The notes below the pieces were generated by a model, which ran no database searches, was not told where the DNA came from, and saw only the letters and a program-made list of their open reading frames with translations. The translations under genes were made by a program, and so were the position numbers. From positions 26,613 to 90,612 of the forward strand of contig CAZEAY010000002.1 in assembly GCA_964510655.1 (NCBI GenBank): a DNA stretch of 64,000 bases, given 5' to 3'. Shown one piece after another: positions 1 to 61,969 of this stretch (positions are counted from its first letter, which is position 1; every line of letters starts with the position of its first letter). This stretch comes from an uncultured Candidatus Saccharibacteria bacterium. Its GTDB lineage: Bacteria > Patescibacteriota > Minisyncoccia > Phycocordibacterales > XYD1-FULL-46-19.

Positions 1-1
1 T

Positions 2-1387
2 GAATTTGGTAAGTGGAGTGGTGGAGCTCTTCTTTACTCGGATTATCCTGGGGGAGTAGGGGTTGCTGGTACTGTGACAAGTGGTGCCCGTGATGGTAAT
101 CAAGCTCCTCCAACCGCTATTATGGGTATGGCTAATGCTCTTGGTGGTTACAGTGGTAGATTCCTTGGATATGATGGTGTCTATACACGAGGAGATAGAT
201 TTGGGCTTTATGCCACAAACCAGCTGGGTGGAGTAGAACCACCAACCGCTTGGCTTGCTACTGTGAATAAAACAGATGGCACTCAAAAAAGTTATGTCGG
301 TTATTTTGCCGATACCTTTAAAAATGCTAATAGTTATGCTGGATATTTTGATGGTAGGCTAGCGACCAATAATCATTTAGATGTTGGTGGTCATATTTAC
401 CTAGGTCTTCCTACGGCGACTGACGGGTCTGATCTTATTCTTCAAAATATGTCTGGAAATTATAATATTGATAATTATAATGGAACATTACGTTTCCACT
501 CAGCTGGACTAGTAAGATTTGCTTTTAGTCAAGATGGAAAAATCAAAATTAATGGTGGTGCCCCAGGTCTGAATAAGGTTTTAGCTTCCACTGATGCAGA
601 AGGTAATGCTGTATGGAAAACTATTCAAGAAATTTGTCCTGGCTGTAGTACTGCAACAAGCCCAAATTATTGGACTCTTAATGGTAGTAATTTATCTAAT
701 AACTCTGGAAATAGCCTGACTCTTAATATTGGAGGAGGTAATAATGCGGTAAATATTAATGCTTCAGCTGGTTATGCTTATCTAAGACTTTCTGATCCAT
801 CTGGTAACACCTCTATTTCTAATTCTGGTTCCAGTCTAAATATTGGAGGTGATAGTGGTGGAGGTTCTATTTACCTACGAACGAATGGCTATAATAATGC
901 TATGGTGATAGGAGCTAGTGGTAACGTTGGGATTGGAACAAACAATCCCCAAAGTAAACTTGAGATTAGTGGGGGTGTGATTGTCGGAAGATCTAGTGTT
1001 GACGATGGAGATAATTTGGTTATTCAATCTGGATCGGGACAATATATATTGGATAACGTTGGTGGAAGTCTAAGATTTTATAACCCAAATGTCTCTGCTT
1101 ATGGTAGACCGGCTGGATTTGTTCCTTTAGAAATTAAACCGAATGGCCAGCTACTAATTCGCGGCGGTAATACTGCTCCGGGAGAAGGAAAAATTCTAAC
1201 CTCAACTGACAATTCTGGGGGGGCTAGTTGGTGTCGGGTTTGTATCAGAACCTATGATACTGATGACTCCCAATATAGTCCTTGGTCCTGTACAAAAGGA
1301 ACTGGTGATGCTGGGGCCAGTGATTTGACCGGCTTTAATAATTCTGTCAGTATTGAAAAAATTCAAGTCAAGATGCAATGTGACTAG
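2..1387 (+). CDS. 5'-truncated secreted/surface repeat protein, tail-fibre-like (Gly/Asn-rich repeats such as GNVGIGTNNPQSKLEISGG and GKILTSTDNSGGASW). Paralog of 1600..3288.
   Basis: The frame is open from window base 2, and the first in-window start is GTG at 74. There are repeated G-x-VGIGTNNPQ-KL motifs. The N-terminal block PTAIMGMANALGGYSGRFLGYDGVYTRGDRFGLYATNQLGG is near-identical to an internal block of the next ORF. The C-terminal Cys module includes SQYS...W.C.KG. A terminator follows. Confidence 0.6.
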   Translation, partial: EFGKWSGGALLYSDYPGGVGVAGTVTSGARDGNQAPPTAIMGMANALGGYSGRFLGYDGVYTRGDRFGLYATNQLGGVEPPTAWLATVNKTDGTQKSYVGYFADTFKNANSYAGYFDGRLATNNHLDVGGHIYLGLPTATDGSDLILQNMSGNYNIDNYNGTLRFHSAGLVRFAFSQDGKIKINGGAPGLNKVLASTDAEGNAVWKTIQEICPGCSTATSPNYWTLNGSNLSNNSGNSLTLNIGGGNNAVNINASAGYAYLRLSDPSGNTSISNSGSSLNIGGDSGGGSIYLRTNGYNNAMVIGASGNVGIGTNNPQSKLEISGGVIVGRSSVDDGDNLVIQSGSGQYILDNVGGSLRFYNPNVSAYGRPAGFVPLEIKPNGQLLIRGGNTAPGEGKILTSTDNSGGASWCRVCIRTYDTDDSQYSPWSCTKGTGDAGASDLTGFNNSVSIEKIQVKMQCD

Positions 1388-1410
1388 TTTTTAGGATACA
1401 ATCACTAAAT

Positions 1411-1444
1411 AAAAATCCCCAATAATTTGGGGATTTTTATTTTA
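1411..1444 (+). terminator. Rho-independent terminator (aaaaatcccc aataattt ggggattttt)
   Basis: A perfect GGGGATT stem is followed by a T-tract immediately after the stop at 1387. Confidence 0.7.
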
Positions 1445-1599
1445 AATTTAATAAATTTATTTAATCTAGTTTTCATTTTTGAGAGTTCGTTATATCCTTG
1501 CGCTCTGAGGTGGATTGTGTTAGTAATGTAAGGATAAATTTTAGGGTTTGGAGACCAATTATTATGTGTGATTCTTTATTAGGATAATTTATTAATTTT

Positions 1600-3288
1600 A
1601 TGAAAAAAGCGTTATTTTTAGGGCTTTTGATCCTCGGATTGGTTAATGTTGCTCAGGCTGTAGCTATTGACGACAGTTTGACTCCTCAGAACTGTGACCG
1701 ATCCAATCCGGCTTGTGCTCAGTTTGTTGATACTACTTCCGTTGGTCAGGTAAAATGGGGTGGTTTTATTGCTGGTGGTTTGCGTTCATTAACCAACCTT
1801 TTTGTCGATGGCAAACTTGGTGTTGGTACTTTACGTCCATCCACCGGTGAACAAGTTTTAAAGTTAGATGTTGAGGGTGCTGTTGGTGCTAAGTTTTACT
1901 GTGATGAAAACGGCAACCATTGTGTGGCTGGTGGTAATTTGGGTGGTGGCAATACGACTAACATAAATTTGACTGGCAATGGTGGGGTTTTGGTTTATAA
2001 TCCAACTTCTAATACTTATATTCTTTCTATTTCTACTAGTACGATTCAATCTCGAATCACTGGCACTTGTCCTGCTGGGGAAGCGGTGCGAGTAGTAAAT
2101 CAAGACGGAACGGTAGTTTGTCAGAGTACTTCCGGTACTGGCAATGGTGATTCTTTCTGGACAGCCAATGGTAATAATATTTTCAACAATAATTCTGGAA
2201 ATGTTGGTTTGGGGACTAATAATCCTCAGCAGAAATTAGATATCAATGGCAACCTCTTTGCCAATGGAAAGTTTTTTATTGGTACTCCTGAGGCCGGTTG
2301 GAAGACTAGTTGGATTGGGATTGCCACTAATGTTACTAATGACAGTAAGCGTTGGTTGCATATTGGTGGTGAACAGGACAGTAATTGGAATGGTCAAACC
2401 AGTGATGGTGATCGCCGAATTGCTTTCTTTGCCGATCGTAATTATTTCACTGGCAAAATTGGTGTTGGTGTTCAAGGTCCTTCTGCTATGCTTGATATTA
2501 AACAAACTTCTGTTTCTGATGCTTTTGCTGGACAGCCTTCTCTTAAATTTAGCAATGCGGAAAATAAAGTTCGTGGTGAGTTTGGTCGCTACAGTAATGG
2601 AGCGGAACTTACCTCTGAATATGCTGGTGGTGTTGGTGTTGCTGCTACTGTCACTAATGGCGGACGGAATGTGGATCACAAAAATTCTCCTTCCACCGCT
2701 ATTATGGGTATGGCAACGGCTCCAGAGGCTTATACTGGACGTTTCATTGGTTATCAGGGTCTTTATACTCGGGGTGATAAGTTTGGTCTATACGCCACCA
2801 ATGAGCTCGGTGGGGAAGAGGCTCCAGATGCTTTCTTAAGTGATGTTCGCTCTGGTAAGAGCTATGCCGCTTATTTTGCTGATGCGGTCAATAGTGCTAA
2901 GAGTTTTGCTGCTTTCTTCAAGGGTAAGATTGCTATTGTGGATGGTACTCAGGGGGTTGGTAAGATTTTGGCTTCTGATGCTAGTGGTACAGCTAGTTGG
3001 AAAACTCCATCGGAGTTAGGTTTAGCCGGCGGCACAGCTAGTACTCCTGCCAACTTTACTTTCAGTGGTCCTTACAACATTTCTTCTGTTAATCAGGGGA
3101 CTCAAACTAAAGACTTAGGTGTTCACAAAATTTGTATGCTAACTGTTTCTCAGTATTCTATTACGGCTGGTGCTTGGGGTAATCCTGTTTGTAAGGTAGG
3201 AAGAAATGCTAATAATTCTTGGTATTTCCAAGCCATGTCTGATAGTAAGGGAATTGGTGCTCACTGTGAGGCCTTGTGTTTAGATTAA
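1600..3288 (+). CDS. Secreted tail-fibre-like repeat protein (signal peptide MKKALFLGLLILGLVNVAQA). Paralog of the upstream ORF.
   Basis: It has an N-terminal signal peptide, the motif GNVGLGTNNPQQKLDINGN, and the shared block SPSTAIMGMATAPEAYTGRFIGYQGLYTRGDKFGLYATNELGG. It also has GKILASDASGTASWKT and a C-terminal Cys module (SQYS...W..PVCKVG...HCEALCLD) matching the C-terminus of ORF 2..1387. Confidence 0.65.
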   Translation: MKKALFLGLLILGLVNVAQAVAIDDSLTPQNCDRSNPACAQFVDTTSVGQVKWGGFIAGGLRSLTNLFVDGKLGVGTLRPSTGEQVLKLDVEGAVGAKFYCDENGNHCVAGGNLGGGNTTNINLTGNGGVLVYNPTSNTYILSISTSTIQSRITGTCPAGEAVRVVNQDGTVVCQSTSGTGNGDSFWTANGNNIFNNNSGNVGLGTNNPQQKLDINGNLFANGKFFIGTPEAGWKTSWIGIATNVTNDSKRWLHIGGEQDSNWNGQTSDGDRRIAFFADRNYFTGKIGVGVQGPSAMLDIKQTSVSDAFAGQPSLKFSNAENKVRGEFGRYSNGAELTSEYAGGVGVAATVTNGGRNVDHKNSPSTAIMGMATAPEAYTGRFIGYQGLYTRGDKFGLYATNELGGEEAPDAFLSDVRSGKSYAAYFADAVNSAKSFAAFFKGKIAIVDGTQGVGKILASDASGTASWKTPSELGLAGGTASTPANFTFSGPYNISSVNQGTQTKDLGVHKICMLTVSQYSITAGAWGNPVCKVGRNANNSWYFQAMSDSKGIGAHCEALCLD

Positions 3289-3310
3289 AATATCTAAATT
3301 AAGATGGTTT

Positions 3311-3343
3311 AAAAAATCTCCACTGTTGGTGGAGATTTTTTTG
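3311..3343 (+). terminator. Rho-independent terminator (aaaaaatctccac tgtt ggtggagattttttt)
   Basis: An inverted repeat TCTCCAC/GTGGAGA is followed by a T-tract. Confidence 0.7.
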
Positions 3344-3386
3344 TTTAAGTTATTCACTCAAATTATATTTTTAGATTTGTTAATGA

Positions 3387-3395
3387 TGATATAAT
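3387..3395 (+). promoter_or_regulatory. Extended -10 promoter element (TGaTATAAT), 7 nt upstream of the pilB ATG. It implies a leaderless transcript.
   Basis: A TGnTATAAT consensus sits at 3387-3395 and the ATG is at 3403. There is no SD in between. Confidence 0.5.
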
Positions 3396-3402
3396 AAGAC
3401 TA

Positions 3403-5157
3403 ATGAATATTGATCAGGATCAATTAATCAGTTTTTTAACTGATACTAAACTTGTTTCGGCTGATGATATAAAAAAATCTCAAGCTTTAGCGGCTGAACA
3501 AAAAAAGACTTTGTCGGAAATTTTAATTAGTGATGGAAAAATTTCTGAAGATGATTATCGTCGAGTGAATGCTTATCTAATTGGTATTCCTTTTGTAGAC
3601 TTAAAGACCGAAAAAATTGATAAAAGTATTTTATCTCTTATCCCTGAACCAATTGCCAGAAAACACAATATTGTCGCTTTTGGTAAAAAGGACAATGATT
3701 TGGAGGTGGCCATGCTTGATCCTCAAGATCTGGAAGCGATTGAATTTATTAAAAAAAGCTCCGGCTTACGAATTCTTCCACGTCTCACAGACACCGAATC
3801 TATTAAAAAATCCCTCGTTCAATATCAAAAGAGTTTGAAGGCTGAATTTGGCGATATTATTCAAAAGGAATCTCTAAATGTGGGCCAAGATGGGGGTTTT
3901 GACGGAGTGTCTCTTGAAGGGGAAACTGATCTGAAAAAATTGGCTGAAGATTTGCCTATTGTGCGGATTGTTGAAACTCTGCTTACTCATGCCATCATGC
4001 AAAAAGCCTCAGATATTCATATTGAAATCTATGAGAAAGAGTTGGTGGTCCGCTATCGCATCGATGGTATTTTGCATGATGCTATGATTTTACCTCGGAA
4101 CATCGCCGCTGGTATTATTGCTCGGATCAAGGTTTTGGCTAATCTTCGCCTTGATGAAAAACGTTTACCGCAAGACGGGCGATTCAAAATGGAATTATCT
4201 GATCAAAATGTCGCTTTCCGGGTTTCTATTTTACCTACTTATTATGGAGAAAAAGTTGTTATGCGTTTGTTGCCAGAGACTGTCCATGGATTTACTTTGG
4301 AAACATTGGGCTTTCATGGAGCATCTTTGGAAAAAATACATGAGGCTACTAGAGCGGCGACCGGGATGATTTTGGTTACTGGTCCAACTGGTTCGGGAAA
4401 GTCCACCACCCTCTATACTTTGTTAGAAATTCTTAACACTCCCGATGTAAATATCTCTACTATTGAAGATCCAATTGAATATCAAATACCGCGAATTAGT
4501 CAAACTCAAGTTAAGCCAGATATCGGTCTAACTTTTGCTAATGGGTTAAGATCTTTAGTCCGTCAGGACCCCGACATTATTATGGTTGGGGAAATTCGAG
4601 ATAAAGAGACCGCTAATTTGGCGATCAATGCTGCCTTGACTGGACACTTGGTTTTGTCTACTTTGCATACTAATTCCGCCGCCGGAACTGTTCCTCGTAT
4701 GCTTGATATGGGGGCGGAAGCCTTTCTTCTTGTTTCTACGATTAAAGTTATTGTTGCTCAACGGCTGGTGAGAAAGCTCTGTCCATCAAAAGAAGAGTAC
4801 CACTTAACTAAAGACGAATTGGCTAAACTATCCCTTCATGTTGACATGGACCGTGTTTTACAAATTTTGAAAGAGGAAAATATTATCGAACCTAATGTCG
4901 GTTGGGATAAGGTGCCTTTTTATAAAAATATTCCATCAGCAGAATCAAAAGATGGTTTTGCTGGTCGGGTCGGAATTCATGAGGTGTTATCTCTAACTTC
5001 TTCGATTAAAGATATGATTATTAAGGGTTTAACGACCGAAGAGATAGAATCTCAAGCTAAGAAGGAGGGAATGATGACAATGATTGAAGATGGTGTCTTT
5101 AAGGCTGTTCAAGGTATTACTACGATTGAAGAAGTGTTACGTGTCGTTACGGAGTAA
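3403..5157 (+). CDS. pilB: Type IV pilus assembly ATPase PilB / GspE family
   Basis: It has a GspE N-terminal domain, the Walker A motif GPTGSGKST and the conserved motifs LSTLHTNSAAGTVPRMLDMG and MVGEIRD. Length is 584 aa. Confidence 0.9.
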   Translation: MNIDQDQLISFLTDTKLVSADDIKKSQALAAEQKKTLSEILISDGKISEDDYRRVNAYLIGIPFVDLKTEKIDKSILSLIPEPIARKHNIVAFGKKDNDLEVAMLDPQDLEAIEFIKKSSGLRILPRLTDTESIKKSLVQYQKSLKAEFGDIIQKESLNVGQDGGFDGVSLEGETDLKKLAEDLPIVRIVETLLTHAIMQKASDIHIEIYEKELVVRYRIDGILHDAMILPRNIAAGIIARIKVLANLRLDEKRLPQDGRFKMELSDQNVAFRVSILPTYYGEKVVMRLLPETVHGFTLETLGFHGASLEKIHEATRAATGMILVTGPTGSGKSTTLYTLLEILNTPDVNISTIEDPIEYQIPRISQTQVKPDIGLTFANGLRSLVRQDPDIIMVGEIRDKETANLAINAALTGHLVLSTLHTNSAAGTVPRMLDMGAEAFLLVSTIKVIVAQRLVRKLCPSKEEYHLTKDELAKLSLHVDMDRVLQILKEENIIEPNVGWDKVPFYKNIPSAESKDGFAGRVGIHEVLSLTSSIKDMIIKGLTTEEIESQAKKEGMMTMIEDGVFKAVQGITTIEEVLRVVTE

Positions 5158-5245
5158 CGGCACAATTTCGAATGTCAGATGTAAAATTAAAAATGAAATA
5201 CGATTTGGTGTATCTTATTTGACTTTTGACATTTGAAATTTGTAA

Positions 5246-6469
5246 TTGAAATTCATGTTATTTAAAATAAAAGCACAAAAATCTAATGGCGAAATTGTTG
5301 AGGGGGTAAGGGAATCCTCTGATAAATTGATGCTCTCTCGTGAAATGCGGGCCGAGGGTTTGGCTCTATTTTTTGCTGAAGCTCTGCATAAGACTGAACC
5401 CTCGGGCGGTTTTTTTCGAGGATTATTTAAAAAAGTTGGATTAAAAAATAAAATAGTCTTTGCTAGTAACTTAAGTTCGATGATTTCGGCCGGTCTGACT
5501 CTGTCTCGGTCTTTAGAAGTTTTGGAAAGGCAAACCTCGCAAAAGTATTTTAAAGGTGTAATCAAAGATTTACTGAGAAGAGTTACGACTGGAGAGAGTC
5601 TCAGTCAGGCACTTGAGGCTTATCCATCTGTGTTTCCTCCTGTTTTTTCGGCGATGGTGGGGGCAGGTGAAGAATCTGGTAATCTACCTAATTCTTTGTC
5701 AATCATCAAGGATCAAATGGGTAAAACCTATGAATTAAAAAGAAAAATTACTGGTGCCATGATTTATCCGACAATTATTGTCTTACTCATCATTGTTATC
5801 GGAATTTTGATGATGGTTTTTATGGTCCCAACTCTTTCAGCCACCTTTAAAGATTTAAATGTTGCCTTGCCTCTATCGACCAGGATGATTATTGGAGTGA
5901 GTGATTTTTTAAAGAACCATTATCTGGTTTTTGCCCTGGCTGTAATTTTGGTGGTGACTGTTTTCAGTTTTTGGCTCAAAACTCCAAAAGGTAAAAAAGC
6001 TCTAGATTTTGTTGTTCTGCGGCTGCCTATTTTTGGTAATTTGGTCAGAGAATATAATTCCGCGGTTATCATGAGGACGATTTCGTCTTTAATTACAGCT
6101 GGAGTAAGTATGACTAAATCAATTGAAATCACTGGTAACGTCATTCAAAATTCTTTTTATAAACCAGTCATGGTTGGAGCCGTTACTGATATCCAAAAAG
6201 GTATTTTACTCTCAGCTGTTTTTGAAAAACAAGAAAAACTTTTTCCCGTTTTTGTGTCTGAGTTGGCAGAGGTTGGTGAAGAGACTGGAAATTTGCCACA
6301 AATGCTTGAGAAGGGGGCGGTCTTTTATGAAAATGAGATTGATCAAGCGACAAAAAATCTTTCAACAATTATTGAGCCTCTTTTGATGATTGTTATTGGG
6401 GCGGCCGTTGGATTTTTTGTGGTGGCAATGATTGGTCCAATGTATAGTCTTACATCGGCAATAAAATAG
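5246..6469 (+). CDS. pilC: Type IV pilus inner-membrane platform protein PilC / GspF family
   Basis: Two GspF repeats and three TM segments give a PilC-like architecture (407 aa). It lies directly downstream of pilB. Confidence 0.85.
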   Translation: MKFMLFKIKAQKSNGEIVEGVRESSDKLMLSREMRAEGLALFFAEALHKTEPSGGFFRGLFKKVGLKNKIVFASNLSSMISAGLTLSRSLEVLERQTSQKYFKGVIKDLLRRVTTGESLSQALEAYPSVFPPVFSAMVGAGEESGNLPNSLSIIKDQMGKTYELKRKITGAMIYPTIIVLLIIVIGILMMVFMVPTLSATFKDLNVALPLSTRMIIGVSDFLKNHYLVFALAVILVVTVFSFWLKTPKGKKALDFVVLRLPIFGNLVREYNSAVIMRTISSLITAGVSMTKSIEITGNVIQNSFYKPVMVGAVTDIQKGILLSAVFEKQEKLFPVFVSELAEVGEETGNLPQMLEKGAVFYENEIDQATKNLSTIIEPLLMIVIGAAVGFFVVAMIGPMYSLTSAIK

Positions 6470-6485
6470 TTTTACGGTAAAGAAA

Positions 6486-8294
6486 ATGCTATACCACTCT
6501 GATATAAAATCTGACCGACTAAGTAAAGCTGGCTTTACTCTGGTGGAAGTTTTAGTGGGAGCATTTATTTTGTCGATTATTTGTATTGGGGTTTATGGCG
6601 GCTTTGTTTCTGTTATTAAAACGGTCCGGGCGGCTCGGGTTAAGACCGATGCCATGCTTTTAGCCAATGAACAAATAGAGATTGTCCGAAATTTACCTTA
6701 CCAGGATGTTGGAATTGTGGCTGGTATTCCAGTCGGGGTTATTCCTCGAGAACAAGTCTTAACTCGGGGAGGGGTGTCATTTAAACTAACTTCAAGTATC
6801 AGGAATATTGATGATCCTTTCGATGGAACTATTGGTAGTAGTACTAAAAATGACTTATCACCAGCTGACTACAAACAACTTCAGATTGACATAGAATGTC
6901 TGGCTTGTGCGAATGGAGAATTTTTACCACAAAAAATTTATACAACGATTGCTCCTAAAAACTTAGAAACAGCTAATGGCAACGGGGCTTTATTTGTTAA
7001 AGTGTTTAATTCTAATGGTGATCCGGTTTCGGCGGCTCGTGTTCGGATTGAGAAAAGTCCAACTTTGATTGATGAACTGACGGACAATAATGGAGTCTTC
7101 GCCCTGATTGATGCTCCGCCAGGCGCCCTGGCTTATAAAGTGACCGTCACTAAAGATGGTTATTCTTCGGAAGGGACTTCGGCTATTACTACCGGAAACC
7201 CTAACCCCCTGATTCCTCCGGCGACTATTTTAGGTGGACAGGCAACACAAATAAGTTTTGCGATTGATAAGCTTAGTAACTTGGGTATTCAAGTGGTTAA
7301 CGGGGTTTGTAATCCGATTGATGGTGTTTCAGTGAGGGTTGTTGGGCAAAAAAAGATTGGACAGAACCCCGATGTTTATAAGTATGATAATATTTTAACT
7401 TCGGACTCTCTGGGGTTGATTAATCTTTCTAATCTGGAGTGGGATACTTATAGGTTCTCTTTAGCCACCACTAGTTCTTGGTTTTTAGCTGGAACATCAG
7501 TTTTTGTACCGTTGTTTGTCGCTCCCGACACGTCTCCTCAAATTCTTTTGACGGCTCTGGCTAGAAAGCCGAATGGGCTTCTGGTTTCTGTTCATGATAG
7601 TGCGACAGGTCTTCCGTTGTCAGGGGCAGATGTTACGATCGAGACACAAACACTAGTTACTAGTCAGGGGTTTTTCAATCAAACGGATTGGTCGCTTGGC
7701 TCTGGTCAGATCATCTACACTAATAATAAAATGTTTGCTGATACCGATGGTAATATAGATTTCACTAATAATCCTGGAGAAATACGTTTGCGATCATCTT
7801 TGGGTAAATTTATTGTATCTGGTAATCTTATTTCTTCTATTTTTGATTCTGGTAGCACAAGTACGGAATATAAATCTCTCCGTTTTTCACCATCCGATCA
7901 AGCTACCACGACCGGCGTTGGGAGTATTCGCCTACAATTGGCTTCTGGTAATGATCCGGCGACCACCACTTGGAATTTTCTTGGTCCCGACGGGACGGCT
8001 TCTTCTTATTATACGACGTCCAACGAGGGAATTAATTCTGTCCACAATAATCATCGTTATATTCGCTATAAAGTATTTTTACAAACAGCTAACGATTTGG
8101 TTACTCCCAATATTTCAGACATCGGCCTTACTTACACGGCGGCTTGCACTCCGCCAGGTCAGGCTTATTTTGAGGGCTTGTCTGGTGGACCACAAACTAT
8201 TTCTGTTAATCGTGATGGTTATTTGCCCTACACTTCTGCTATTGATGTCAGCGATGTTTGGCAGGAATTAAATGTTTCATTAACTGAGATTTAA
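6486..8294 (+). CDS. Large prepilin-type (class III signal) pilin-like protein
   Basis: The N-terminus has KAG|FTLVEVLVGAFIL, a prepilin peptidase cleavage/methylation motif (G followed by FTLxE) with a hydrophobic helix. The 602-aa remainder is Thr/Ser/Gly-rich. Confidence 0.7.
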   Translation: MLYHSDIKSDRLSKAGFTLVEVLVGAFILSIICIGVYGGFVSVIKTVRAARVKTDAMLLANEQIEIVRNLPYQDVGIVAGIPVGVIPREQVLTRGGVSFKLTSSIRNIDDPFDGTIGSSTKNDLSPADYKQLQIDIECLACANGEFLPQKIYTTIAPKNLETANGNGALFVKVFNSNGDPVSAARVRIEKSPTLIDELTDNNGVFALIDAPPGALAYKVTVTKDGYSSEGTSAITTGNPNPLIPPATILGGQATQISFAIDKLSNLGIQVVNGVCNPIDGVSVRVVGQKKIGQNPDVYKYDNILTSDSLGLINLSNLEWDTYRFSLATTSSWFLAGTSVFVPLFVAPDTSPQILLTALARKPNGLLVSVHDSATGLPLSGADVTIETQTLVTSQGFFNQTDWSLGSGQIIYTNNKMFADTDGNIDFTNNPGEIRLRSSLGKFIVSGNLISSIFDSGSTSTEYKSLRFSPSDQATTTGVGSIRLQLASGNDPATTTWNFLGPDGTASSYYTTSNEGINSVHNNHRYIRYKVFLQTANDLVTPNISDIGLTYTAACTPPGQAYFEGLSGGPQTISVNRDGYLPYTSAIDVSDVWQELNVSLTEI

Positions 8295-8295
8295 T

Positions 8296-8898
8296 ATGTT
8301 TAAAAAAGGTTTTACATTAATTGAAATTTTGGTTGCCATCGGTATTTTTACTGGTATTACTTTGGTTTTGAGTAATTTTCAGAAGGATATTTTTGTTAAT
8401 AATACTTTTATTAAAAATAGTTTAGTGGCGGAAAGTGAAGCGCGGGGGGCACTAAAACGAGCTATTGCCGAGCTCCGTGCTGCTTCTTCCTCTAATAATG
8501 GTCTTTATCCTTTGGCCGTTGCTGATAAAAATACCATTACTTTTTTTTCCGATATTGATCGCGATGGTTTGCGTGAGCGGGTACGCTATTTTGTTGCGAC
8601 CTCTTCACTTTGGCGGGCCGTAACCAAACCAACAGGGGAACCCTATTCTTATTTAGATAGTAATGAAAAAATTACGATGGCCGTTCATGATATTGTTAAT
8701 CCAACATCGACACCGGTTTTTAACTTTTATGATAAAACTTACAATGGTACAACTTCTCCCATGTCTTGGCCGGTTGATATTGCCAACGTCCGTTTAGTCA
8801 GAATGACGATCTTGATTGATACCGACCCTGTTCGATCACCGAAGGTTATGACTTTTTCTAGTCAAGTAATGATTCGTAATCTGAAAGACAACCTTTAA
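8296..8898 (+). CDS. Pseudopilin / minor pilin (prepilin-type N-terminus KKG|FTLIEILVAIGIF)
   Basis: It has the prepilin N-terminal methylation motif, is 200 aa, and is translationally coupled to the upstream ORF by a 1-nt gap. Confidence 0.7.
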   Translation: MFKKGFTLIEILVAIGIFTGITLVLSNFQKDIFVNNTFIKNSLVAESEARGALKRAIAELRAASSSNNGLYPLAVADKNTITFFSDIDRDGLRERVRYFVATSSLWRAVTKPTGEPYSYLDSNEKITMAVHDIVNPTSTPVFNFYDKTYNGTTSPMSWPVDIANVRLVRMTILIDTDPVRSPKVMTFSSQVMIRNLKDNL

Positions 8899-8910
8899 AA
8901 TAAATTTCAA

Positions 8911-10389
8911 ATGTCAAAAGTAAAATTACAAATAAAGAATAAAAAAAATGGCGGATATGTGCTAATTAGTACCTTGGTTTTTGCCACTATTGCCGTAATT
9001 ATTTTGACTGGCGTGGCCTCTTGGTCCGCTACCAACTACCGTTTGGCCAACCAAACAGTAAATCGGGAAAAAGCCTTTCAAATCGCTGAAGCGGGTATTG
9101 ATTACTATCGTTGGCATTTAGCTCATTCACCTCAGGATTTTCAAGATGGCACTGGTCAGGCTGGCCCATACACACACCTGTATTACGATAAATTTGGTAA
9201 TGTAATTGGCAATTACCAATTGACCATTACCCCTCCTTTGGTCGGTTCAACGGTCGTTAAAATTGTTTCTAAGGGTACAGTTGCAAGCACTACTATTTCT
9301 CGTTCTATTGAGGTGATTTTAGCTATTCCCTCCCTGGCTAAATATGCTTTTGTGGCTAATTCTGTGATGCGTTTTGGTGAAGGAACAGAAGTTTTTGGGC
9401 CAATTCATTCTAATGACGGTATTCGGATGGACGGTTTGGCTCATAATATTGTTACTAGTGCTAAATCCACTTACGATGATCCTGATCATAATGGAGGTTT
9501 AGAATTTGGTGTGCATACCCATATTCAAGCGCCTCCCTCTAGTGGTCTGAGTAATGGAGGTTTATCAAGCGAAGCGCCTCCTTCTACTGTTCCTGTCCGG
9601 TCCGATGTTTTTATGTCTGGACGCCAGTTTCCCGTTCCTGCTATTGATTTTAATGGGTTAACTTCTAATTTGGCTAATTTGAAAACCTTAGCTCAGTCAG
9701 CCGGACGTTACTTTGCCTCTTCTGGAGCCCAAGGTTACAATATCGTCTTAAAGACTAATGGGACTTTTGATTTATATAAAGTTACAGCTTTAGTTTCGGC
9801 GGCTCATTCTTGCAATAAACAAAATTGGCCAGATCAGGAGGGTTGGGGAACATTTTCAGTTGGGACTCAAGTCTTCGTTGCTAATTATCCTTTTCCGACC
9901 AATGGAGTAGTTTTTGTCGAGGATAATGTTTGGGTGGAGGGTAAGATTAATAATGCTCGATTAACAATCGCTTCCGGCCGGTTTCCTGAGAGTGTTAACA
10001 CTAATACGAGTATTTCATTTACTAAAGATATTTTGTATACCAATTATGATGGTCGAGATGTCCTTGCTTTAATTGCCCAAAATAATGTTAATGCGGGAAT
10101 GACCAGCGCTGATACGATTGAAGTAGATGCTGCTCTTATTGCTAAAAATGGTCGAGTCGGGAGATATTATTACAATTCTAGTTGTCATCCTTATGATGAT
10201 CGGACTAAGATTAGATTGTACGGTATGATTGGGACTAACCAGCGTTATGGTTTTGCTTATACGGGAAGTCAGAGTGGGGGCTATGCAATAAGGGAAGTTG
10301 TTTATGATGGTAATCTGCTTTATGGTCCACCTCCTTCTTTTCCTTTGACTAGTGATCAATATGTAACGATTAGTTGGAGGGAAATTTAA
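8911..10389 (+). CDS. PilX-like type IV pilus minor pilin/assembly protein (N-terminal TM helix GGYVLISTLVFATIAVIILTG)
   Basis: A PilX-N-like hydrophobic N-terminus follows a short basic leader. It is 492 aa and is the last gene of the pilus operon. Confidence 0.55.
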   Translation: MSKVKLQIKNKKNGGYVLISTLVFATIAVIILTGVASWSATNYRLANQTVNREKAFQIAEAGIDYYRWHLAHSPQDFQDGTGQAGPYTHLYYDKFGNVIGNYQLTITPPLVGSTVVKIVSKGTVASTTISRSIEVILAIPSLAKYAFVANSVMRFGEGTEVFGPIHSNDGIRMDGLAHNIVTSAKSTYDDPDHNGGLEFGVHTHIQAPPSSGLSNGGLSSEAPPSTVPVRSDVFMSGRQFPVPAIDFNGLTSNLANLKTLAQSAGRYFASSGAQGYNIVLKTNGTFDLYKVTALVSAAHSCNKQNWPDQEGWGTFSVGTQVFVANYPFPTNGVVFVEDNVWVEGKINNARLTIASGRFPESVNTNTSISFTKDILYTNYDGRDVLALIAQNNVNAGMTSADTIEVDAALIAKNGRVGRYYYNSSCHPYDDRTKIRLYGMIGTNQRYGFAYTGSQSGGYAIREVVYDGNLLYGPPPSFPLTSDQYVTISWREI

Positions 10390-10445
10390 ACTAATTATTA
10401 ATTTCTTGCTTGATCGGGCAGACAAGTTGAAGTTTTAAACTTAAA

Positions 10446-10485
10446 CCCCTGAAAAACACCCCTTTGGTGTTTTTCAGGGGTTTTC
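10446..10485 (+). terminator. Strong rho-independent terminator (cccctgaaaaacacc ccttt ggtgtttttcagggg tttt)
   Basis: A perfect 15-bp inverted repeat is followed by a T-tract, ending the pilus operon. Confidence 0.85.
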
Positions 10486-12844: not shown

Positions 12845-12987
12845 ATGAATCCCGTGGTAGAAAATCGGCCTCGTTGGGAATAAGTCTTCGGGAAACAGTA
12901 TGAAATTAATCAGTAATTACTAATTTAATAAAGATGGCATAAAAGAATCCCACCAGGATAATGCCATTTTTCACTAACGGGATGAAA
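12845..12987 (+). repeat. Conserved ~140-nt leader element, copy A (upstream of and overlapping the recJ start). It includes hairpin ATGGCAT-N20-ATGCCAT (12934..12967) and the motif CACTAACGGGATGAAA.
   Basis: It shows about 75% nucleotide identity over its whole length to 26188..26330, upstream of rplC. This includes a perfect 7-bp palindromic stem whose 3' arm contains an ATG. Confidence 0.6.
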
Positions 12988-26187: not shown

Positions 26188-26330
26188 ATGAATCCCGTGG
26201 TATTAAATGGCATCGTTGGGGACATAGGAAAGGGTGGAGCTGAATCAATTAAGTAAATTAACAAATTTTAATATAGATGGCATAGGAGAGTCCCAACCGG
26301 ACAATGCCATTTTCCACTAACGGGATGAAA
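26188..26330 (+). repeat. Conserved ~140-nt leader element, copy B (upstream of and overlapping the rplC start). Hairpin ATGGCAT-N20-ATGCCAT at 26277..26310.
   Basis: Collinear ~75% identity to 12845..12987, ending in the identical ...AATGCCATTTTyCACTAACGGGATGAAA. Confidence 0.6.
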
Positions 26331-29810: not shown

Positions 29811-32800
29811 ATGACTAAAATTAAGTATTTTTTATTGAGTTTCCTGCTATTGTTTCCGTTTTTTGTTTCTGCCGTTGATGTTTTTACCACTAGTTACTTA
29901 AAGGAAAAATATCGACAGACTTATGCCACTTGTGGAGTTAAAGCTGTGCCTGGGAGCGATACTGTCCATGATTTGGGTCCCGTTGACAGTTATGGTCAAT
30001 GTTCTGGCTCCTATCCCGACGGATTGGCCGCCGACGCTTATTTGCCTGGTTGCAACCCAATAGCAGGAGAAACCTGGGGGCCTTGGGAGGGTCAGCTATT
30101 CCATGAAAAATCCGGGGCCACTTATCGTCCAGAAGAAATACATCAAGGTTCTACTGCTTATTGTGGTGTGGGCGTAATTAAGTGTGGGGAAGGCTTTAAT
30201 TTCAATGGGGTCACTATGACTGGTGATTATTGTAAGGCTCCGTACATCAAAGATGGTTTTTTTAGTAAGGATGGACAATATGTTGATGAATACTGTATTG
30301 ACTATCAAGCTCCGACTTTTTTAGGTAAATATATTACAGATGGAACAAAAATGGTTCAGTCTTGTTGCACTTCTTTAGCTCACCATGAGACTCACACTTT
30401 TCCTATTATCGGAGATGTAGCCAATGTATTGAGCCAGTGGAACTTGCCGCTGGCTGGAAATTTGGCCGCCGGGGTAAACAGTGCTTCACCGGTAGATTTG
30501 GTTAATAAGGCTAGTTACGATGAATGCTGTAAGGCTCCTGACCAATGTTATGAATTTGGTTTTAATGTGATTAACGCTAGCTTCGCCTTAATAAATCCTC
30601 CATCCACAGGGGCGGCCATCTTAATGACAATGGCTAATAGCATCTTAAATTCGGCGACGGGAGAAATTGGTAAGTATAAAAATCAAGTCTGTCGTTCAGC
30701 TGAACAATCTCAAAATGATCAAACTGCCGCCTCTTATATTGATGATGCTGCCACAATTACCAAACTAGTTAACACTTCTGGGGTAACAGATGTTTTAGCT
30801 AATATAACTTTCTATTTAAGAATTTTACCTACTTATAATAAATGTGGTGGTGGTTCTGCAAAAAATAATTCACCCAAGACTGGTCTCCTAGCCACAACGC
30901 TTGCTTCTAGTGATACTGTCTCAGGTTTCTCATTTACTCCCGAGGCTGCGGCTGGGGGTAAGAGCTGTTCCTTTAAGGTGGTAAAAGGTGGAGTGGATAC
31001 AAACCAACGTGTTTATGTTGCCAATAATTATGTTTTTTTGGATAGTCCAACTTTGAGTTTGAATTCTTCAAAACTCTTTAACAATCAGCCTGGTTACTCC
31101 ACCTCAATGTTAGAAAGAGCTAGGCAGATGGTTAGTCCAGCCATTTACACCCCTAATAAAACTTCTTGGTATTGGAATGGAATTAAGTTTGTTCAAGTAG
31201 ATGATCCTCTGACAGCCTTAAATTTGAATGTTATTTATGCTGGTGTCTCTGCGACTTCACCCGATTTCTTTAATTGTAATGTCAATGATATTCCGAATGT
31301 CGGTCATAGTAATTTGTTTAAAACATTTTTAGCCACTGCTCCAAGTTTATCAATGTGTCCAGTCATTAATTATGGTGATGCTAATAATGACAATCTTAAT
31401 AATTGGACGGACGTTCAGTGTTATCTAAATTTGTTAGGGGATAAGAGTTCCCCCGCCTGTAATCCAGATAAAAAATTAATGGCCTTTAATGACAATAGCG
31501 GGACTGTTATTACTGTCAATGACCTTATGAGAGAGTTGCATGTTATGTCTGACCCCAATCAGCTTATTTATTACAGTTCTGTTAAAAAATATTTAGCTGA
31601 GTCACCTTATAATACAAACTTGCAGTCATGCTTGTTTGGTCGCAATCCAAAAAATAATACATCTTTATTTTCTCCAGCCTTGCCAGATGTTGTGTATAAG
31701 GCGGTCTGCGGAAATAAACTAATTGAAGCTGGTGAGTCGTATGAAACCTGTCCCGCTGATGTGCCGGCACCGGTTGTTAATCCTACCCTCACCTTGATTC
31801 CCTCATCTGGCCTCACTCTTTCTCGGGGTGGAGTGCAGGTTTCAGCAACCACTACTCAATCTCTAGCAAATAATTCCGCAATCTCTTTAACTGCCACTAT
31901 ACCAGCTTCAACTTATTCATCTCGAGCTAGTTCGGTCTCTAAAAAAATCACCTGGACAGGAGTTGATCAAACTATTTGTCCACCTAAGACTGTTGATTGC
32001 AAAATAACCAGTGGAACAGTTTCTTGTTTAGCTCTTACTTCCACTTGTAACTTTACCCTTACTAAAAACACAACAATCCAGCCCAAGTTAGTTCAAATGG
32101 TTGGTATTCAGATTCCTGATACTCCTGCAGTTACTAATTTCACCGCCCCCACTTTTGACTATGGTGCTGGTCAACCATCTCATCGTCTCTGGTTAACCTT
32201 CAATGCCACCGGCTCAGTCAGTTCAATCACCAAGGTCCCTGGTTATGATAAATGCTTTAGCTTCACTGCTTCAACTGATACTGCCTCAGCCGCTTGTCCT
32301 CTTAACCAGCCTATTAAACCTGGTACTAAGTGTGGTATCTACTTACAGGCTAGTAGTGATCGTTGTGTCGTAGCAGTTAAATATCTAACTGGTACTAACA
32401 CGACTAATACTCGTTACTTTGAACAAATCTTCTACAATTCCACCCCTACCACTACGGGGAAAGATACGATTAAGGATCGGGGGACTCGAGCTCCGTCGCC
32501 AGATGATTTTATTCCAGTGGTCCTAACTTCTCCTGTGCCAACGCCAACACCGATTCCTGCGCCAGCTCCTGCTACAAGTCCAACTCCAGTCGTTAATTAC
32601 GCCCTCTCCCTCATTCGTCCTACTACTGGATCTCTAGCTTTCTACTCTTCTCTCAAACTTGTTGCCGCTGATATTACCACCTCTCTGCCAGCTGGCACTA
32701 AGGTTGATCTAAAAGTGAAACGCTCTCCAACTACTCAATCGGGAAGTTCCAGAGCCACTGGTTACAAACTTCGCGTGAACTGGGCTGGCACTTCTTGTCC

Positions 32801-33368
32801 AGAATCAATCACAGACTGCAGTGTTTCACCAGCGGCCATCACTTGTCCCGCGATTGAAACTACTTGTCTCTTTGACTTAACTAAAGATACTCGTGTAGCT
32901 CCTTCATTTACAGCAACACCCGAGTATCCCATCGATACCACCCCTAAAACCCTAACCCTCTCCGTTAACAACCAATCTACTGGCTACATTATCGGTAGCA
33001 AAGACATGGCTGCTAATCCCGTAGAATTCAACTGCGGTCAGGTGGAAGAAATTGGTAATGCTAAGATCTGGCCTGGCACAGCTTGTTCCCAAACCTATCC
33101 TCATGGAACAATTATCACTTTAGTGGCTTCTGTCCCCGGTAATCTCTCTGATGGTAAATCACTCACTCGTGGCACCTTCTCTGGCTGGGGGAGTAATTGT
33201 ACCTCGATGACCACTTGGACTGATATTACTGGTAAATCCTATCAAGCCTGTCAAATCAAACTTGAGGCTAACAAAACCATTTCTGCTTCTTTTACGGGAC
33301 CGACTTCGTGGTTGCTCCGGCCGTTTATCCAGCTCGGGAATATTTGGAACTCATTGTGGTCACGGTAG
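29811..33368 (+). CDS. Giant (1185 aa) Cys-rich secreted protein with internal 4-Cys repeat modules, a Pro/Thr linker, and a C-terminal domain shared with ORF 49365..52550
   Basis: It has the signal peptide MTKIKYFLLSFLLLFPFFVSA and many paired Cys. It has two internal repeats (CPPKTVDCKITSGTVSCLALTSTCNFTLTKNT and CPESITDCSVSPAAITCPAIETTCLFDLTKDT). A linker PVPTPTPIPAPAPATSPTPV follows. The C-terminal ~120 aa (NQSTGYIIGSK...FNCGQVEEIGNAKIWPGTACSQTYPHGTIITLVAS...) is homologous to the C-terminus of the 1061-aa protein. Confidence 0.7.
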   Translation: MTKIKYFLLSFLLLFPFFVSAVDVFTTSYLKEKYRQTYATCGVKAVPGSDTVHDLGPVDSYGQCSGSYPDGLAADAYLPGCNPIAGETWGPWEGQLFHEKSGATYRPEEIHQGSTAYCGVGVIKCGEGFNFNGVTMTGDYCKAPYIKDGFFSKDGQYVDEYCIDYQAPTFLGKYITDGTKMVQSCCTSLAHHETHTFPIIGDVANVLSQWNLPLAGNLAAGVNSASPVDLVNKASYDECCKAPDQCYEFGFNVINASFALINPPSTGAAILMTMANSILNSATGEIGKYKNQVCRSAEQSQNDQTAASYIDDAATITKLVNTSGVTDVLANITFYLRILPTYNKCGGGSAKNNSPKTGLLATTLASSDTVSGFSFTPEAAAGGKSCSFKVVKGGVDTNQRVYVANNYVFLDSPTLSLNSSKLFNNQPGYSTSMLERARQMVSPAIYTPNKTSWYWNGIKFVQVDDPLTALNLNVIYAGVSATSPDFFNCNVNDIPNVGHSNLFKTFLATAPSLSMCPVINYGDANNDNLNNWTDVQCYLNLLGDKSSPACNPDKKLMAFNDNSGTVITVNDLMRELHVMSDPNQLIYYSSVKKYLAESPYNTNLQSCLFGRNPKNNTSLFSPALPDVVYKAVCGNKLIEAGESYETCPADVPAPVVNPTLTLIPSSGLTLSRGGVQVSATTTQSLANNSAISLTATIPASTYSSRASSVSKKITWTGVDQTICPPKTVDCKITSGTVSCLALTSTCNFTLTKNTTIQPKLVQMVGIQIPDTPAVTNFTAPTFDYGAGQPSHRLWLTFNATGSVSSITKVPGYDKCFSFTASTDTASAACPLNQPIKPGTKCGIYLQASSDRCVVAVKYLTGTNTTNTRYFEQIFYNSTPTTTGKDTIKDRGTRAPSPDDFIPVVLTSPVPTPTPIPAPAPATSPTPVVNYALSLIRPTTGSLAFYSSLKLVAADITTSLPAGTKVDLKVKRSPTTQSGSSRATGYKLRVNWAGTSCPESITDCSVSPAAITCPAIETTCLFDLTKDTRVAPSFTATPEYPIDTTPKTLTLSVNNQSTGYIIGSKDMAANPVEFNCGQVEEIGNAKIWPGTACSQTYPHGTIITLVASVPGNLSDGKSLTRGTFSGWGSNCTSMTTWTDITGKSYQACQIKLEANKTISASFTGPTSWLLRPFIQLGNIWNSLWSR

Positions 33369-49364: not shown

Positions 49365-52300
49365 ATGAAAAAAGTTATTTTGGCACTGCTGTTCGTCTTT
49401 ATGATGATCGTTGTGCCTTTTTCAGTTCAAGCTCAGACTGTTGCTGAGCTTCAAGCTATAATTGCTAGTTTGCAGGCTCAGATTGCAGCTCTGGTTGGTG
49501 GGGGCGGAGGAACAGTTGACATTCCACCAGTCACCCCTACTCCGTCCTGTTACACCTTTACCCGTGATTTATGGGTGGGAAGTGTGGGCGACGATGTCAG
49601 GGACTTACAATTATTTTTAAACAGAGAAGTTGGTTCTAGTCTTCCGACGACCCCTTACTTCGGTAATGAAACCAAGCTGGCTCTTATTAAGTTTCAGAGA
49701 GCAAATGGTATTCCATTAACTGGATACTTCGGTCCTCTTACGAGGGCAGCAGTATCAGCAAAAAATGCGGGGTGTGTTGTTGTTCCACCATCAACGACAA
49801 TGAGTTTTATTGATCCAAAAGCCGGAGAGGTGGTTAAAGCGGGAACTGCCTATATGGTTAATTGGGGTGGTTCATGGAGTGGAAATGATTCCTTCAATAT
49901 AACCGAATTCTTAGATAGCGGGAAAGATTTTATTGTTTCTGGACTTACTCAAGAACAGGCGGGATGTCCTGGTTATGGCAAAGGGGTATGCAGTTTTTCA
50001 TGGACCCCTAAGGAGGCTTCGTCTAGAGCTCAATTAGCCATTCAGCGACAATATAACGGGGGAGGCAAAGGTGGGGGAGATATAGCATATTCCGAATTTT
50101 TTTCTGTAGCAGCGGGAAATCAACAAAATAGTGGCGGAGAAGCTTATATTCAGGGAATACCAACACTATCTATCAGTCAAAATTATCGGGATGGGTACAC
50201 TTCGCGCTCAGCGCTAACTATTACGGCGAGAGGAGTTCTGAATTCTAGAGGTGGAGATTCCTATGTTTACCAACAGTCCGGCAGTTTAGGCTTTTACGCT
50301 AAAAGTATGTCTGGCAAGAATTTACCAACACAGGGTACTGCGATCTCTTTTACTATGAACGCTCCAGTTGTCACTGATAGGCTTGGTAATTCTTACTATA
50401 AACTCAGTGAGGGCACTCCTTACTCCTTTACGCAGACAGTTTCTTATGACACCGGATTAATGTTTGGGGGAGTTTATAAGGGAATGTTGTCTCATCTTTC
50501 TTACTTCCGTGACGTAAACGATGTTGCTAATAATATTAATCCAGTGGGAGTTGAAGTGGGTCCTTACAGTAGTCCATCAGCTTATGTCGTTGGAGAAAAG
50601 GGTCCATATCTTACTTCTGCTATTGAAATGGGTAAAAATGAAGTTGGGATGCTTTATCGGGTAAATGGTGAAAGACTAGACGGTAATTCCGTAGTCTACG
50701 TTGACGGTTCTGTCTATGCAAAACAGCCAGATATTGCTTTACCTGCCAGCAGAGATAGTTTATTGTTTGGCTCTCAACCGCTTTCTCCTGGAAATCATTA
50801 TGTTTATGTTGTAAACCCAACAACGGGTCGCAGTAATACTGTTTATTTGCAGGTAGGAAATACGACAAATGAGCCCTCTCTAACTGTTACGACTCCAAAC
50901 GGTGGTGAAATTTATTATTCGAATGATCTACAAGTTTCTTGGCAGTCAAATTATAATTCTCAGTCAGTAAAAGTTCATTTATATAGTCCGATTGATGGAG
51001 ATAAGTATGTTTCTCCAAACCTTAATAGTACGATTGGTGGGAATTCCTTTATTATCCCAGCTGGGACAATAAGAGCTATGAATTCCGGGCAATACAAGAT
51101 AAATGTTTGTGATGATAATCAATCTCCTTCTGGAGATGGCCTGTCAGGAAAGTCCCTTTGTGATTTAAGTGATGATTATTTTACCCTTAAGGGAAGTACA
51201 TCTAATATTTTCCCTGTCGCTAACCCGGTCATCAGTTCCTTTACTGGACCAAACGTTATCACCGCTGGTCAGACAGGAACTTGGACTGCCAGTTTAGCCT
51301 CTTCTTCTGGTCCTGGCTATACTTACTCTATTGATTGGGGAGATGGTTCTGGTTTCCAAAATATTACTAACCCAGCTGTCGCTACCTCAAATATTCGCGG
51401 AACCCATTCTTATGCCAGAGCTGGATCATACGATGTCACTTTTAGAATTTCTTATTATGCGAGTGTTACTTGTGTGAGAGCTCCTTGTAATCCGGTGGCA
51501 CGGACGGTAGAGGCTAAGAATGTTGTCACGGTGGCGGCTGCGACTACTCCTACTAACGGCTGGTGTGGTTCAGCTAATGGTCAGTCATATCCTACTCAGC
51601 CAGACTCAAGTCTCACTTGCTCCAGAGGGACCAGTGCGGATATGAGAACAACAACTACTGGGTGGGCGTGGAATTGTTTGGGTACTAATGGAGGAATTCC
51701 TGTCTCTTGTTGGGCGACTAAGTCAGTAGTGGCTCCGCCAACATCTGTAGATTTGTCGGTTTCTCAGACGATTAGTTCCAATCCATCTCTTGAGAATATC
51801 TATGAAGATAGTCAGGTTACTTTTACGGTAGAAGTTAACAATCCAAGTCAGACATCCTTAGCTGATGTTACTGGTTATTGGATTGTTAATGGAGTAACTT
51901 TCAGTATAAACAAAATGACTGGTAATACCTCCGCTATTACGGTCCCTGCCAATAAAATTTTCCCTGGGCGAAACAATGTAAACTTCAAGATTTATCCACC
52001 GGCTTCAATGAACGAACAAAACACTTGGAATAATACCGTTGATACTTATTTCAATGTTAAAACTCGTACTGTTGAGTCTGATGTACCTCGTACTTTGACA
52101 ATTAATATCGATAACCAATCTACTGGTTATGTAATTGGTGGAAAAAATAATGCTCAGGGTATAAGTGCAATTGAGTTCAATTGTGGACAGCAGGAAGAGG
52201 TTGCTAATGCTAAGATTTGGACCGGTACCGCCTGTTCCCAGACTTATCCAAATGGCACAATTATCACTCTAGTTGCTTCCCATACAGGACTCTTGAAACC

Positions 52301-61896: not shown

Positions 61897-61969
61897 TGCA
61901 TGCGCCTGGACTCGAACCAGGGACCAGTCGTGTATAAGACGACGGCTCTACCAACTGAGCTACGCATGC
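61897..61969 (-). tRNA. tRNA-Ile with anticodon UAU (decodes AUA). CCA is not encoded.
   Basis: The reverse complement folds as a canonical cloverleaf: acceptor GCATGCG/CGCATGC, D-arm GCTC-AGTTGGTA-GAGC, anticodon stem GTCGT/ACGAC with loop C-U-UAU-A-C, and T-arm CCTGG-TTCGAGT-CCAGG. Confidence 0.8.

Follow-up and report, generated by a model that had tools for sequence, protein, structure and literature searches.

Paired chromosomal fibre genes with Bdellovibrio-type shaft repeats beside the type IV pilus operon of an uncultured Candidatus Saccharibacteria bacterium

The mosaic adhesive trimer (MAT) fibres of Bdellovibrio are phage-tail-fibre-like trimers for prey recognition, in which a signal peptide is followed by a conserved domain of ~130 amino acid residues (aa) and an intertwined trimeric beta-helix/prism; S74 and non-S74 subfamilies are distinguished, and the tips are diverse, independently folding and swappable (Caulton et al. 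2024, PMC10769870). Homologues were listed in other predators and in some non-predators, none of them in Patescibacteria, and a possible interplay with type IV pili was raised by the same authors (PMC10769870). A "tail fibre-like protein" was also mentioned in passing as co-localizing with the pam pilus operon across genomes of the candidate phyla radiation (CPR) (Troman et al., bioRxiv 10.64898/2026.03.03.709456). Here we describe two paralogous fibre genes, A and B, located directly upstream of a type IV pilus operon on 64,000 nucleotides (nt) of contig CAZEAY010000002.1 (assembly GCA_964510655.1, positions 26,613 to 90,612) from an uncultured Candidatus Saccharibacteria bacterium; this whole stretch is referred to below as the window. 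A and B are concrete candidates for specificity determinants in host recognition and attachment by Patescibacteria (CPR). Full-text searching of the literature found no paper on these proteins or on their position beside the type IV pilus operon.

A and B are, on balance, probably chromosomal, Sec-secreted fibre adhesins of the MAT type, with a likely role in host-cell recognition and attachment alongside the type IV pilus. The bacterium belongs to a Vogelbacteria-like lineage of obligate symbionts within the ultrasmall Patescibacteria. The sequence-only reading of the window had compared both products with phage tail-fibre and receptor-binding proteins; in profile searches against known structures, the sole PDB matches were MAT fibres of Bdellovibrio. 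The B profile, built from 14 aligned B-type proteins, was run on 177,635 distinct PDB sequences and matched Bd2133 (E 1.2e-8), Bd1334 (1.4e-5 and 0.018) and Bd3182 (0.012), with nothing else notable. The A profile, built from 10 aligned A-type proteins and likewise run on the whole of PDB, matched Bd2133 (4.9e-9), Bd1334 (4.4e-6 and 1.5e-5), Bd3182 (0.0019) and Bd2439 (0.04), and no others. These four proteins are among the six structurally characterized MAT fibres of Bdellovibrio bacteriovorus. The alignments of both profiles sit on GNVGIGT..PTAKL.V repeats, which bear the VG.G...P...L capping-loop motif of the MAT shafts, and the motif GNVGIGTNNPQSKLEI of A aligns with GNVGIGATAPTAKLEV of Bd2133. 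Searches of PDB with A and B as single sequences gave no match.

The features of the fibre genes, with positions counted from the first letter of the window, are as follows.

2..1387, + strand: 3' part of fibre gene A, an open reading frame (ORF) open at the window edge, 461 codons present.
2..364, + strand: shared "knob" block in A (aa 1-121), EFGKWSGGALLYSDYPGGVGV...PTAIMGMA...YTRGDRFGLYATN...YAGYFDG.
368..631, + strand: beta unit 1 of A (aa 123-210), its C-terminal end being NKVLASTDAEGNAVW.
920..967, + strand: fibre repeat motif GNVGIGTNNPQSKLEI in A, located by regular expression.
950..1240, + strand: beta unit 2 of A (aa 317-413), its C-terminal end being GKILTSTDNSGGASW.
1229..1384, + strand: C-terminal tip of A, type T1, four Cys, WCRVCIRTYDTDDSQYSPWSC...KIQVKMQCD.
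1411..1440, + strand: terminator-like hairpin 3' of A, then a T-rich tail, AAAAATCCCC-AATAATT-TGGGGATTTTT.
1600..3288, + strand: fibre gene B, a complete ORF of 562 aa with 33 homologues.
1600..1659, + strand: Sec-type signal peptide of B, MKKALFLGLLILGLVNVAQA, with predicted cleavage before VAIDD, by inspection.
1660..1989, + strand: B-type N-terminal head (aa 21-130), VAIDDS.TPQNCDRSNPAC...GQ.KWGG...RSLTNLFVDG...YCDENGNHC.
2017..2127, + strand: small two-Cys domain of B (aa 140-176), ..Q.RI.G.C..G.A.....QDG.V.C.
2197..2244, + strand: fibre repeat motif GNVGLGTNNPQQKLDI in B.
2452..2499, + strand: degenerate fibre repeat GKIGVGVQGPSAMLDI in B.
2578..2934, + strand: shared "knob" block in B (aa 327-445), from BLASTP.
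2959..3000, + strand: GKILASDASGTASW motif, the final fibre element ahead of the B tip.
3052..3285, + strand: C-terminal tip of B, type T2, four Cys, ..HKICMLTVSQ...CKVGRN...W.FQA...AHCEALCLD.
3311..3341, + strand: strong terminator-like hairpin between B and pilB, with a 14-bp stem and a T-run.

Both ORFs are present on the + strand where the sequence-only reading had placed them, and the ORF of A runs open to the window edge. By comparison with its 860-aa orthologue L002_A, to residues 422-743 of which A 1-326 is 64% identical, ~420 codons of gene A were estimated to fall 5' of the window. The hairpin at 1411..1440 was found by direct reading of the sequence and was not listed by the consensus scan. 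The position of the B signal peptide is kept in 14 homologues, with lipobox and prepilin motif both missing; the N-terminus of A itself lies outside the window, and its orthologues L002_A and L012_A carry a signal peptide. Cysteines of A, B and L002_A occur in even numbers and close pairs, which fits extracellular disulfides.

The paralogy of A and B was confirmed by BLASTP, in which A 1-121 aligned with B 327-445 at 57% identity (E 8e-39); the 45-aa block originally noticed proved to be the core of a larger common block of 123 aa. The VGIGTNNPQ.KL.I motif is located at aa 307 of A and aa 200 of B, with a degenerate copy at aa 285 of B, and the GK(I/V)L.S.D..G.ASW motif is present in the three copies claimed (A 191, A 396 and B 454); no copies of the VGIGTNNPQ and GK.L motifs were found elsewhere in the window by regular expression. 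Within A, an internal duplication relates residues 123-210 to 317-413 (35% identity, E 7e-13). DNA identity over the block shared by A and B is 65-72%, indicating that the duplication is old. Recent gene conversion between A and B was rejected on the same low identity.

Two further claims on module structure fared less well. A shared small Cys module beginning with SQYS at the end of both proteins is not supported, since the tips of A and B have no significant similarity (BLAST E = 12); they represent two separate tip families in the wider protein set. The different order of modules in A and B is mostly an artefact of the absent N-terminus of A, and real shuffling becomes visible only in the comparison of different genomes. 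B 284-548 is collinear with residues 379-628 of L002_A (45% identity, E 2e-63), and A carries one extra segment, a beta unit with a GK.L motif, ahead of the tip.

The head of the fibre is conserved and the tip is variable. The B head (~110 aa) is nearly invariant in the family, as judged from 14 homologues. At seven related loci, identity to the orthologue in the window is 66-85% for the B head (aa 21-130), 19-51% for the remainder of B and 24-50% for A, with values of 73-85% for PilB, 57-79% for PilC and 48-80% for the pilin-like proteins. BLAST-based clustering of the C-terminal regions, after two merged types had been split by eye, distinguished at least nine tip types among ~35 proteins, and five of these types are found on both A-type and B-type heads. 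The tip of A in the window (WC.VCI..YD...KMQC) is found on the B-position protein of L002, L005, L009 and L012, indicating real shuffling between paralogues and genomes. It is 77% identical to the tip of the B-position protein L002_B/P0002 and 45-50% identical to those of P0006, P0009, P0012, P0013 and P0020; the A protein of L002 bears yet another tip type. Homologues of the B tip are carried by P0003, P0004 and P0007, and, by reading of the sequence, by the first fibre gene of L021.

Each locus of the clade that has both fibre genes carries one A-head gene and one B-head gene, which suggests two distinct anchoring sites or roles. A metagenome scan with the A-type head yielded 5 loci. In many distant relatives (P0052, P0120, P0129, P0142, P0148, P0158, P0170 and others) the signal peptide is followed by a common head, W-x-E/x-P-T-x-x-P-P-x-x-N-x-x-A-P-I/L-N-V-G/S-x3-Q-x-K-x-G, and the A- and B-type heads look, from their residue patterns, like Cys-loop versions of this widespread N-terminal head. 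The two-Cys domain of B is present in 0-3 copies in the fibre homologues and was matched by no Pfam model. It is found in tandem in many unrelated giant proteins; as a ~35-aa unit, Q.R[IV].G.C..G.[AS][IV]R.[IV]..DG.V.C, it forms long arrays in P0049, P0060 and P0155.

A total of eleven related loci, from separate assemblies or samples, supplied the genomic context; they represent fewer lineages, because several pairs have identical fibre proteins. The order nusA(-), A-type fibre, B-type fibre and pilB was found in L001, L002, L003/L004, L005/L006, L009, L010, L011, L012 and L015, and the longer loci go on with pilC, three pilin-like genes, tpiA and pgk. In L008, from a metagenome-assembled genome labelled Candidatus Vogelbacteria, nusA(-), A and B are followed by the end of the contig ahead of pilB. 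Thus all ten loci with an upstream flank have nusA(-) and then the fibre genes, and nine of them extend to pilB; farther upstream, genes for H+-PPase, trigger factor, ClpP and RNase Y are located. L005 has a further unrelated ORF of 202 aa 3' of B. In L009, two short overlapping ORFs of 205 and 122 aa (6132-7062) lie between the A and B genes and contain fibre repeats and a Cys-rich end, with neither signal peptide nor head; the probable explanation is a third fibre gene that is frameshifted or decaying, or else a cassette without a head.

A rearranged locus, L021 (GCA_964648765.1, on a 553-kb contig), was reached independently through a homologue of the 602-aa pilin with 47% identity. Four tandem fibre genes (1146-6966) abut pilB there with a gap of 52 nt, and nusA is not present upstream. 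The first of the four contains a collagen-like run, GPQGPQGPVGPQGPPGQDG, and a tip that on reading appears related to that of B in the window; the other three have a common Cys-rich tip of a different kind.

The fibres diversify by modules. Between L002 and L012, two closer relatives with dS of ~0.7-1.4, B had a ratio of nonsynonymous to synonymous substitution (dN/dS) of 0.03; the ratio of A was 0.10, rising to 0.43 in a single N-terminal segment, against ~0.01 for nusA, pilB and H+-PPase. The suggestion that A and B form a diversifying receptor-binding pair therefore stands in the modular sense of tip exchange, and the expected elevation of dN/dS was not observed. Positive selection by point mutation was rejected on the values of 0.03-0.10. 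Variation of the diversity-generating retroelement or shufflon type was likewise rejected, as neither a template/variable repeat pair nor inverted repeats were found at the tips in the 64 kb, in which no systematic search for reverse transcriptase was made.

These observations lead to the following model for A and B as MAT-type adhesins. The signal peptide would be cleaved off, and three chains would intertwine into a beta-helix/prism shaft built of GNVGIGT..P..KL.V and GK.L.S.D..G.A.W repeat units. At the N-terminus the conserved head, of which two types exist, would anchor the fibre to a conserved partner in the cell envelope, so that the fibre would be displayed at the surface. The C-terminal tip, small and disulfide-bonded, would recognize a ligand of another cell, most likely a glycan of its surface. 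By recombination between A and B genes and between genomes, tips would be swapped, so that specificity changes and the anchoring head stays constant. Indirect support for a trimer comes from the Peptidase_S74 domains, trimerization chaperones, at the C-terminus of the A-position proteins of L001 and L009; the S74 domain of these A-position relatives matches the phage long-tail-fibre chain 6F45 (E 2e-6), and the same domain ends four of ten sampled distant relatives. The tips of A and B in the window are non-S74.

In an AlphaFold2 model of B 436-562, from an alignment of four sequences, the B tip is predicted as a six-strand beta sandwich with predicted local distance difference test (pLDDT) values of 85-91. 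H-type lectins are trimeric six-strand sandwiches. Among sub-threshold Foldseek matches, those of best probability included the H-type lectins Helix agglutinin 4Q56 (0.75), SLL-2 3WMP (0.66) and discoidin II, a phage protein with an "H-type lectin domain" (E 0.018), an R-type pyocin fibre and several tail-fibre proteins of phages; CofB was also among the sub-threshold matches. The likeness of this predicted fold to H-type lectins is attractive but should be read as a lead only. No match was obtained when the B tip by itself served as the homology query.

Several findings weigh against the adhesin model. The homology to MAT fibres is established for the shaft repeats only, and the N-terminal head of B is of low confidence in the AlphaFold2 model; that model of the full-length B monomer is poor as a whole (pLDDT 41). 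Pfam, PHROGs and NCBIfam assign A and B to no family (best E in PHROGs, 0.24). The model of the B tip has no significant Foldseek match in PDB or BFVD, and the ligand class is accordingly a guess. A Giovannonibacteria locus carries the same pilus operon with a two-component system in place of the fibre genes.

The pilus operon that follows the fibre genes is organized as follows.

3403..10389, + strand: type IV pilus operon.
3403-5157, + strand: pilB.
5246-6469, + strand: pilC.
6486-8294, + strand: pilin-like protein of 602 aa with a prepilin N-terminus and a CarboxypepD_reg domain.
8296-8898, + strand: prepilin-like protein of 200 aa.
8911-10389, + strand: protein of 492 aa.
10443-10483: very strong terminator-like hairpin with an 18-bp stem, closing the pilus operon.

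With hairpins at 3311-3341 and 10443-10483 the pilus operon is bounded on both sides, and each fibre gene is likewise closed by a terminator-like hairpin of its own; tpiA, pgk, recJ and comEC follow 3' of the operon. The class III prepilin motif G|F-T-L-x-E was detected in the ORFs at 6486 and 8296 only, and not in A or B.

A physical integration of the fibres into the type IV pilus system is unlikely; in that case their heads would dock on the pilus, for example on the large pilin-like proteins encoded downstream, or the pilus machinery would export them. The fibre genes lie directly 5' of pilB and on the same strand in every locus with fibres that reaches pilB, and in L021 the four fibre genes abut pilB with no terminator although the region upstream is rearranged. 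The B head is conserved at the level of PilB, the operon encodes unusually large pilin-like proteins (602 and 492 aa), and interplay with type IV pili was raised for the MAT fibres themselves (PMC10769870). However, the fibres bear Sec signal peptides and not prepilin signals, and in 10 of the 11 related loci a hairpin with a T-tail intervenes between the final fibre gene and pilB. Heads of similar kind are found at the N-terminus of thousands of proteins. Moreover, nusA, tpiA and pgk are just as syntenic, so that adjacency in a narrow clade may represent inherited gene order; with the whole region syntenic in relatives, adjacency alone is weak evidence. The unbiased sample on the pilus side is tiny: among three operons reached by way of the 602-aa pilin, fibre genes are present in one (L021) and absent from another, and the third is truncated by the end of its contig.

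The early proposal that A and B are adhesins or proteins of the pilus tip thus divides: adhesin is a good inference, and a role at the pilus tip is not borne out, given the Sec signals and the strong terminator-like hairpin ahead of pilB. Cooperation of fibre and pilus in attachment is plausible, and physical coupling is unproven. As a more speculative and rather doubtful extension, the heads might attach the fibres to the pilus itself or to the large pilin-like subunits; a retractable pilus with two interchangeable phage-style fibres would then form a modular host-range device, and the gap between nusA and pilB would be a cassette site at which tips or whole fibre genes are swapped between lineages.

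A use of the surface fibres in another role, such as S-layer or matrix, kin cohesion, or a decoy or shield against phages, with the variety of tips arising from phage or immune pressure and not from host range, is somewhat less credible again than integration into the pilus. Relatives of the repeat modules are very common: an exhaustive HMMER search gave 7,281 clusters at E <= 1e-3, with proteins of up to 5,875 aa and varied extra domains such as dockerin and LVIVD, indicating that the scaffold serves many purposes, and full-length relatives of B made up only ~20 clusters. The organism of the window is in addition without a known host. On the other side, the sole experimentally studied relatives recognize prey surfaces (PMC10769870), a conserved head with swapped tips is the architecture of a receptor-binding protein, and the keeping of a set of two genes in so small a genome points to an interaction function that is essential.

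That A and B are ordinary phage tail fibres or tailocin fibres from a prophage upstream of the window is very improbable: fibre repeats and S74 chaperones are indeed typical of phage tail fibres, and several sub-threshold Foldseek matches of the tip belong to phage tail-fibre proteins or an R-type pyocin fibre, but the upstream neighbours at the ten related loci are nusA and the genes for H+-PPase, trigger factor, ClpP and RNase Y, with no phage module; the chromosomal position is fixed even among genomes that share only 73-85% identity in PilB; tblastn with B as the query found nothing in 50,697 phage records, and no relative was confirmed when IMG/VR was scanned for the patterns of the head motifs; and the GC content of the fibre genes is that of the remaining window.

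The description of A and B as tail-fibre-like but outside any prophage was upheld by the MAT matches, the S74 domains of relatives and the housekeeping genes upstream of related loci. No capsid, terminase, portal, sheath or integrase gene was found in the ten related loci with upstream sequence, and a prophage upstream was seen in none of the relatives examined. GC content is flat at ~0.40 over the whole window, both fibre genes included, and the rest of the window is ordinary chromosome with recJ, comEC, fusA, ftsH, tmRNA and one tRNA. A prophage origin was rejected on this genomic context; A and B are chromosomal MAT/tail-fibre-like paralogues and not prophage genes.

Other elements in the window were noted in the course of the analysis. 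A 64-nt element occurs in two copies of 88% identity at 12924-12987 and 26267-26330 (TTTAATA.AGATGGCATA...TCCCA.C.GGA.AATGCCATTTT.CACTAACGGGATGAAA), its hairpin spanning the ATG of recJ (12961) and that of the ORF at 26304; a related copy is located just 5' of pilB in L009 (9275-9320). The core pattern was never found in shuffled sequence, and a common role of the element in 5' regulation or translational control is possible. Two very large ORFs, 29811-33368 (1185 aa, without a Pfam family) and 49365-52550 (1061 aa, PG_binding_1 and PKD), share a C-terminal module (32970-33130 against 52113-52279, 74-79% nucleotide identity) and probably encode another pair of surface paralogues. Adjoining the PKD protein, 52735-55014 encodes a reprolysin-like (M12B) metalloprotease of 759 aa that contains three Big_7 Ig-like domains, possibly a secreted or host-directed protease. 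ARAGORN identified tRNA-Ile with anticodon TAT at 61896-61969 on the - strand.

A and B place a known fibre class in a new and biologically apt setting. If they are host-recognition adhesins, host ranges could be grouped or predicted from the tip types seen in metagenomes, hosts could be fished for with recombinant tips, and the parallel between predator, phage and episymbiont, with one fibre toolkit for cell-cell targeting, would reach a major uncultivated radiation. Their fixed position beside the pilus operon makes the suggested interplay of MAT fibres and pili directly testable.

Among known systems, the tail fibre-like protein linked to pam is similar in that a tail-fibre-like gene lies consistently beside a CPR pilus operon; it differs, as far as comparison by description only allows, in accompanying donor-strand-exchange Pam pili and in belonging to Saccharimonadia and Microgenomatia. 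Adhesins of the type IV pilus tip (PilY1/PilC, and the minor pilins CofB and TcpB) share with A and B the pilus-gene neighbours and a presumed adhesive function. CofB has a trimeric H-type lectin domain, and the model of the B tip weakly resembles H-type lectins, a resemblance that is not significant. Unlike these adhesins, A and B have no prepilin signal, no pilin N-terminal helix and no PilY1 beta-propeller, and the fibre genes are transcriptionally separate from the pilus operon.

The phage fibres and tailspikes with a C-terminal S74 intramolecular chaperone, such as the K1F endosialidase, the T5 L-shaped fibre pb1 and the S16 long tail fibre 6F45, follow a similar logic of trimeric beta-helical fibres with a conserved N-terminal attachment part and a variable receptor-binding end, and S74 is found on the A-position orthologues. 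They differ in that no virion genes lie near A and B, that A and B of the window are without S74, and that B has no BLAST-level similarity to the 50,697 phage records.

The MAT fibres differ from A and B in their host lineage (Oligoflexia against Patescibacteria), in length (~1,000 aa in Bdellovibrio against 334-996 aa) and in number (21 in Bdellovibrio against 2-4 genes per genome at one fixed, pilus-adjacent locus); the proteins described here have two distinct Cys-loop heads, and their tip types are not those solved for Bdellovibrio. In other respects the likeness is close. Both are chromosomal and not phage-borne, with a signal peptide and then a conserved N-terminal domain; both have shaft repeats of the GNVGIGT..P..KL.V type, which align at the sequence level; both families include S74 and non-S74 forms with small, independently folding, swappable C-terminal tips; and in both cases multiple paralogues are carried in the genome of an organism that lives by attaching to other bacteria.

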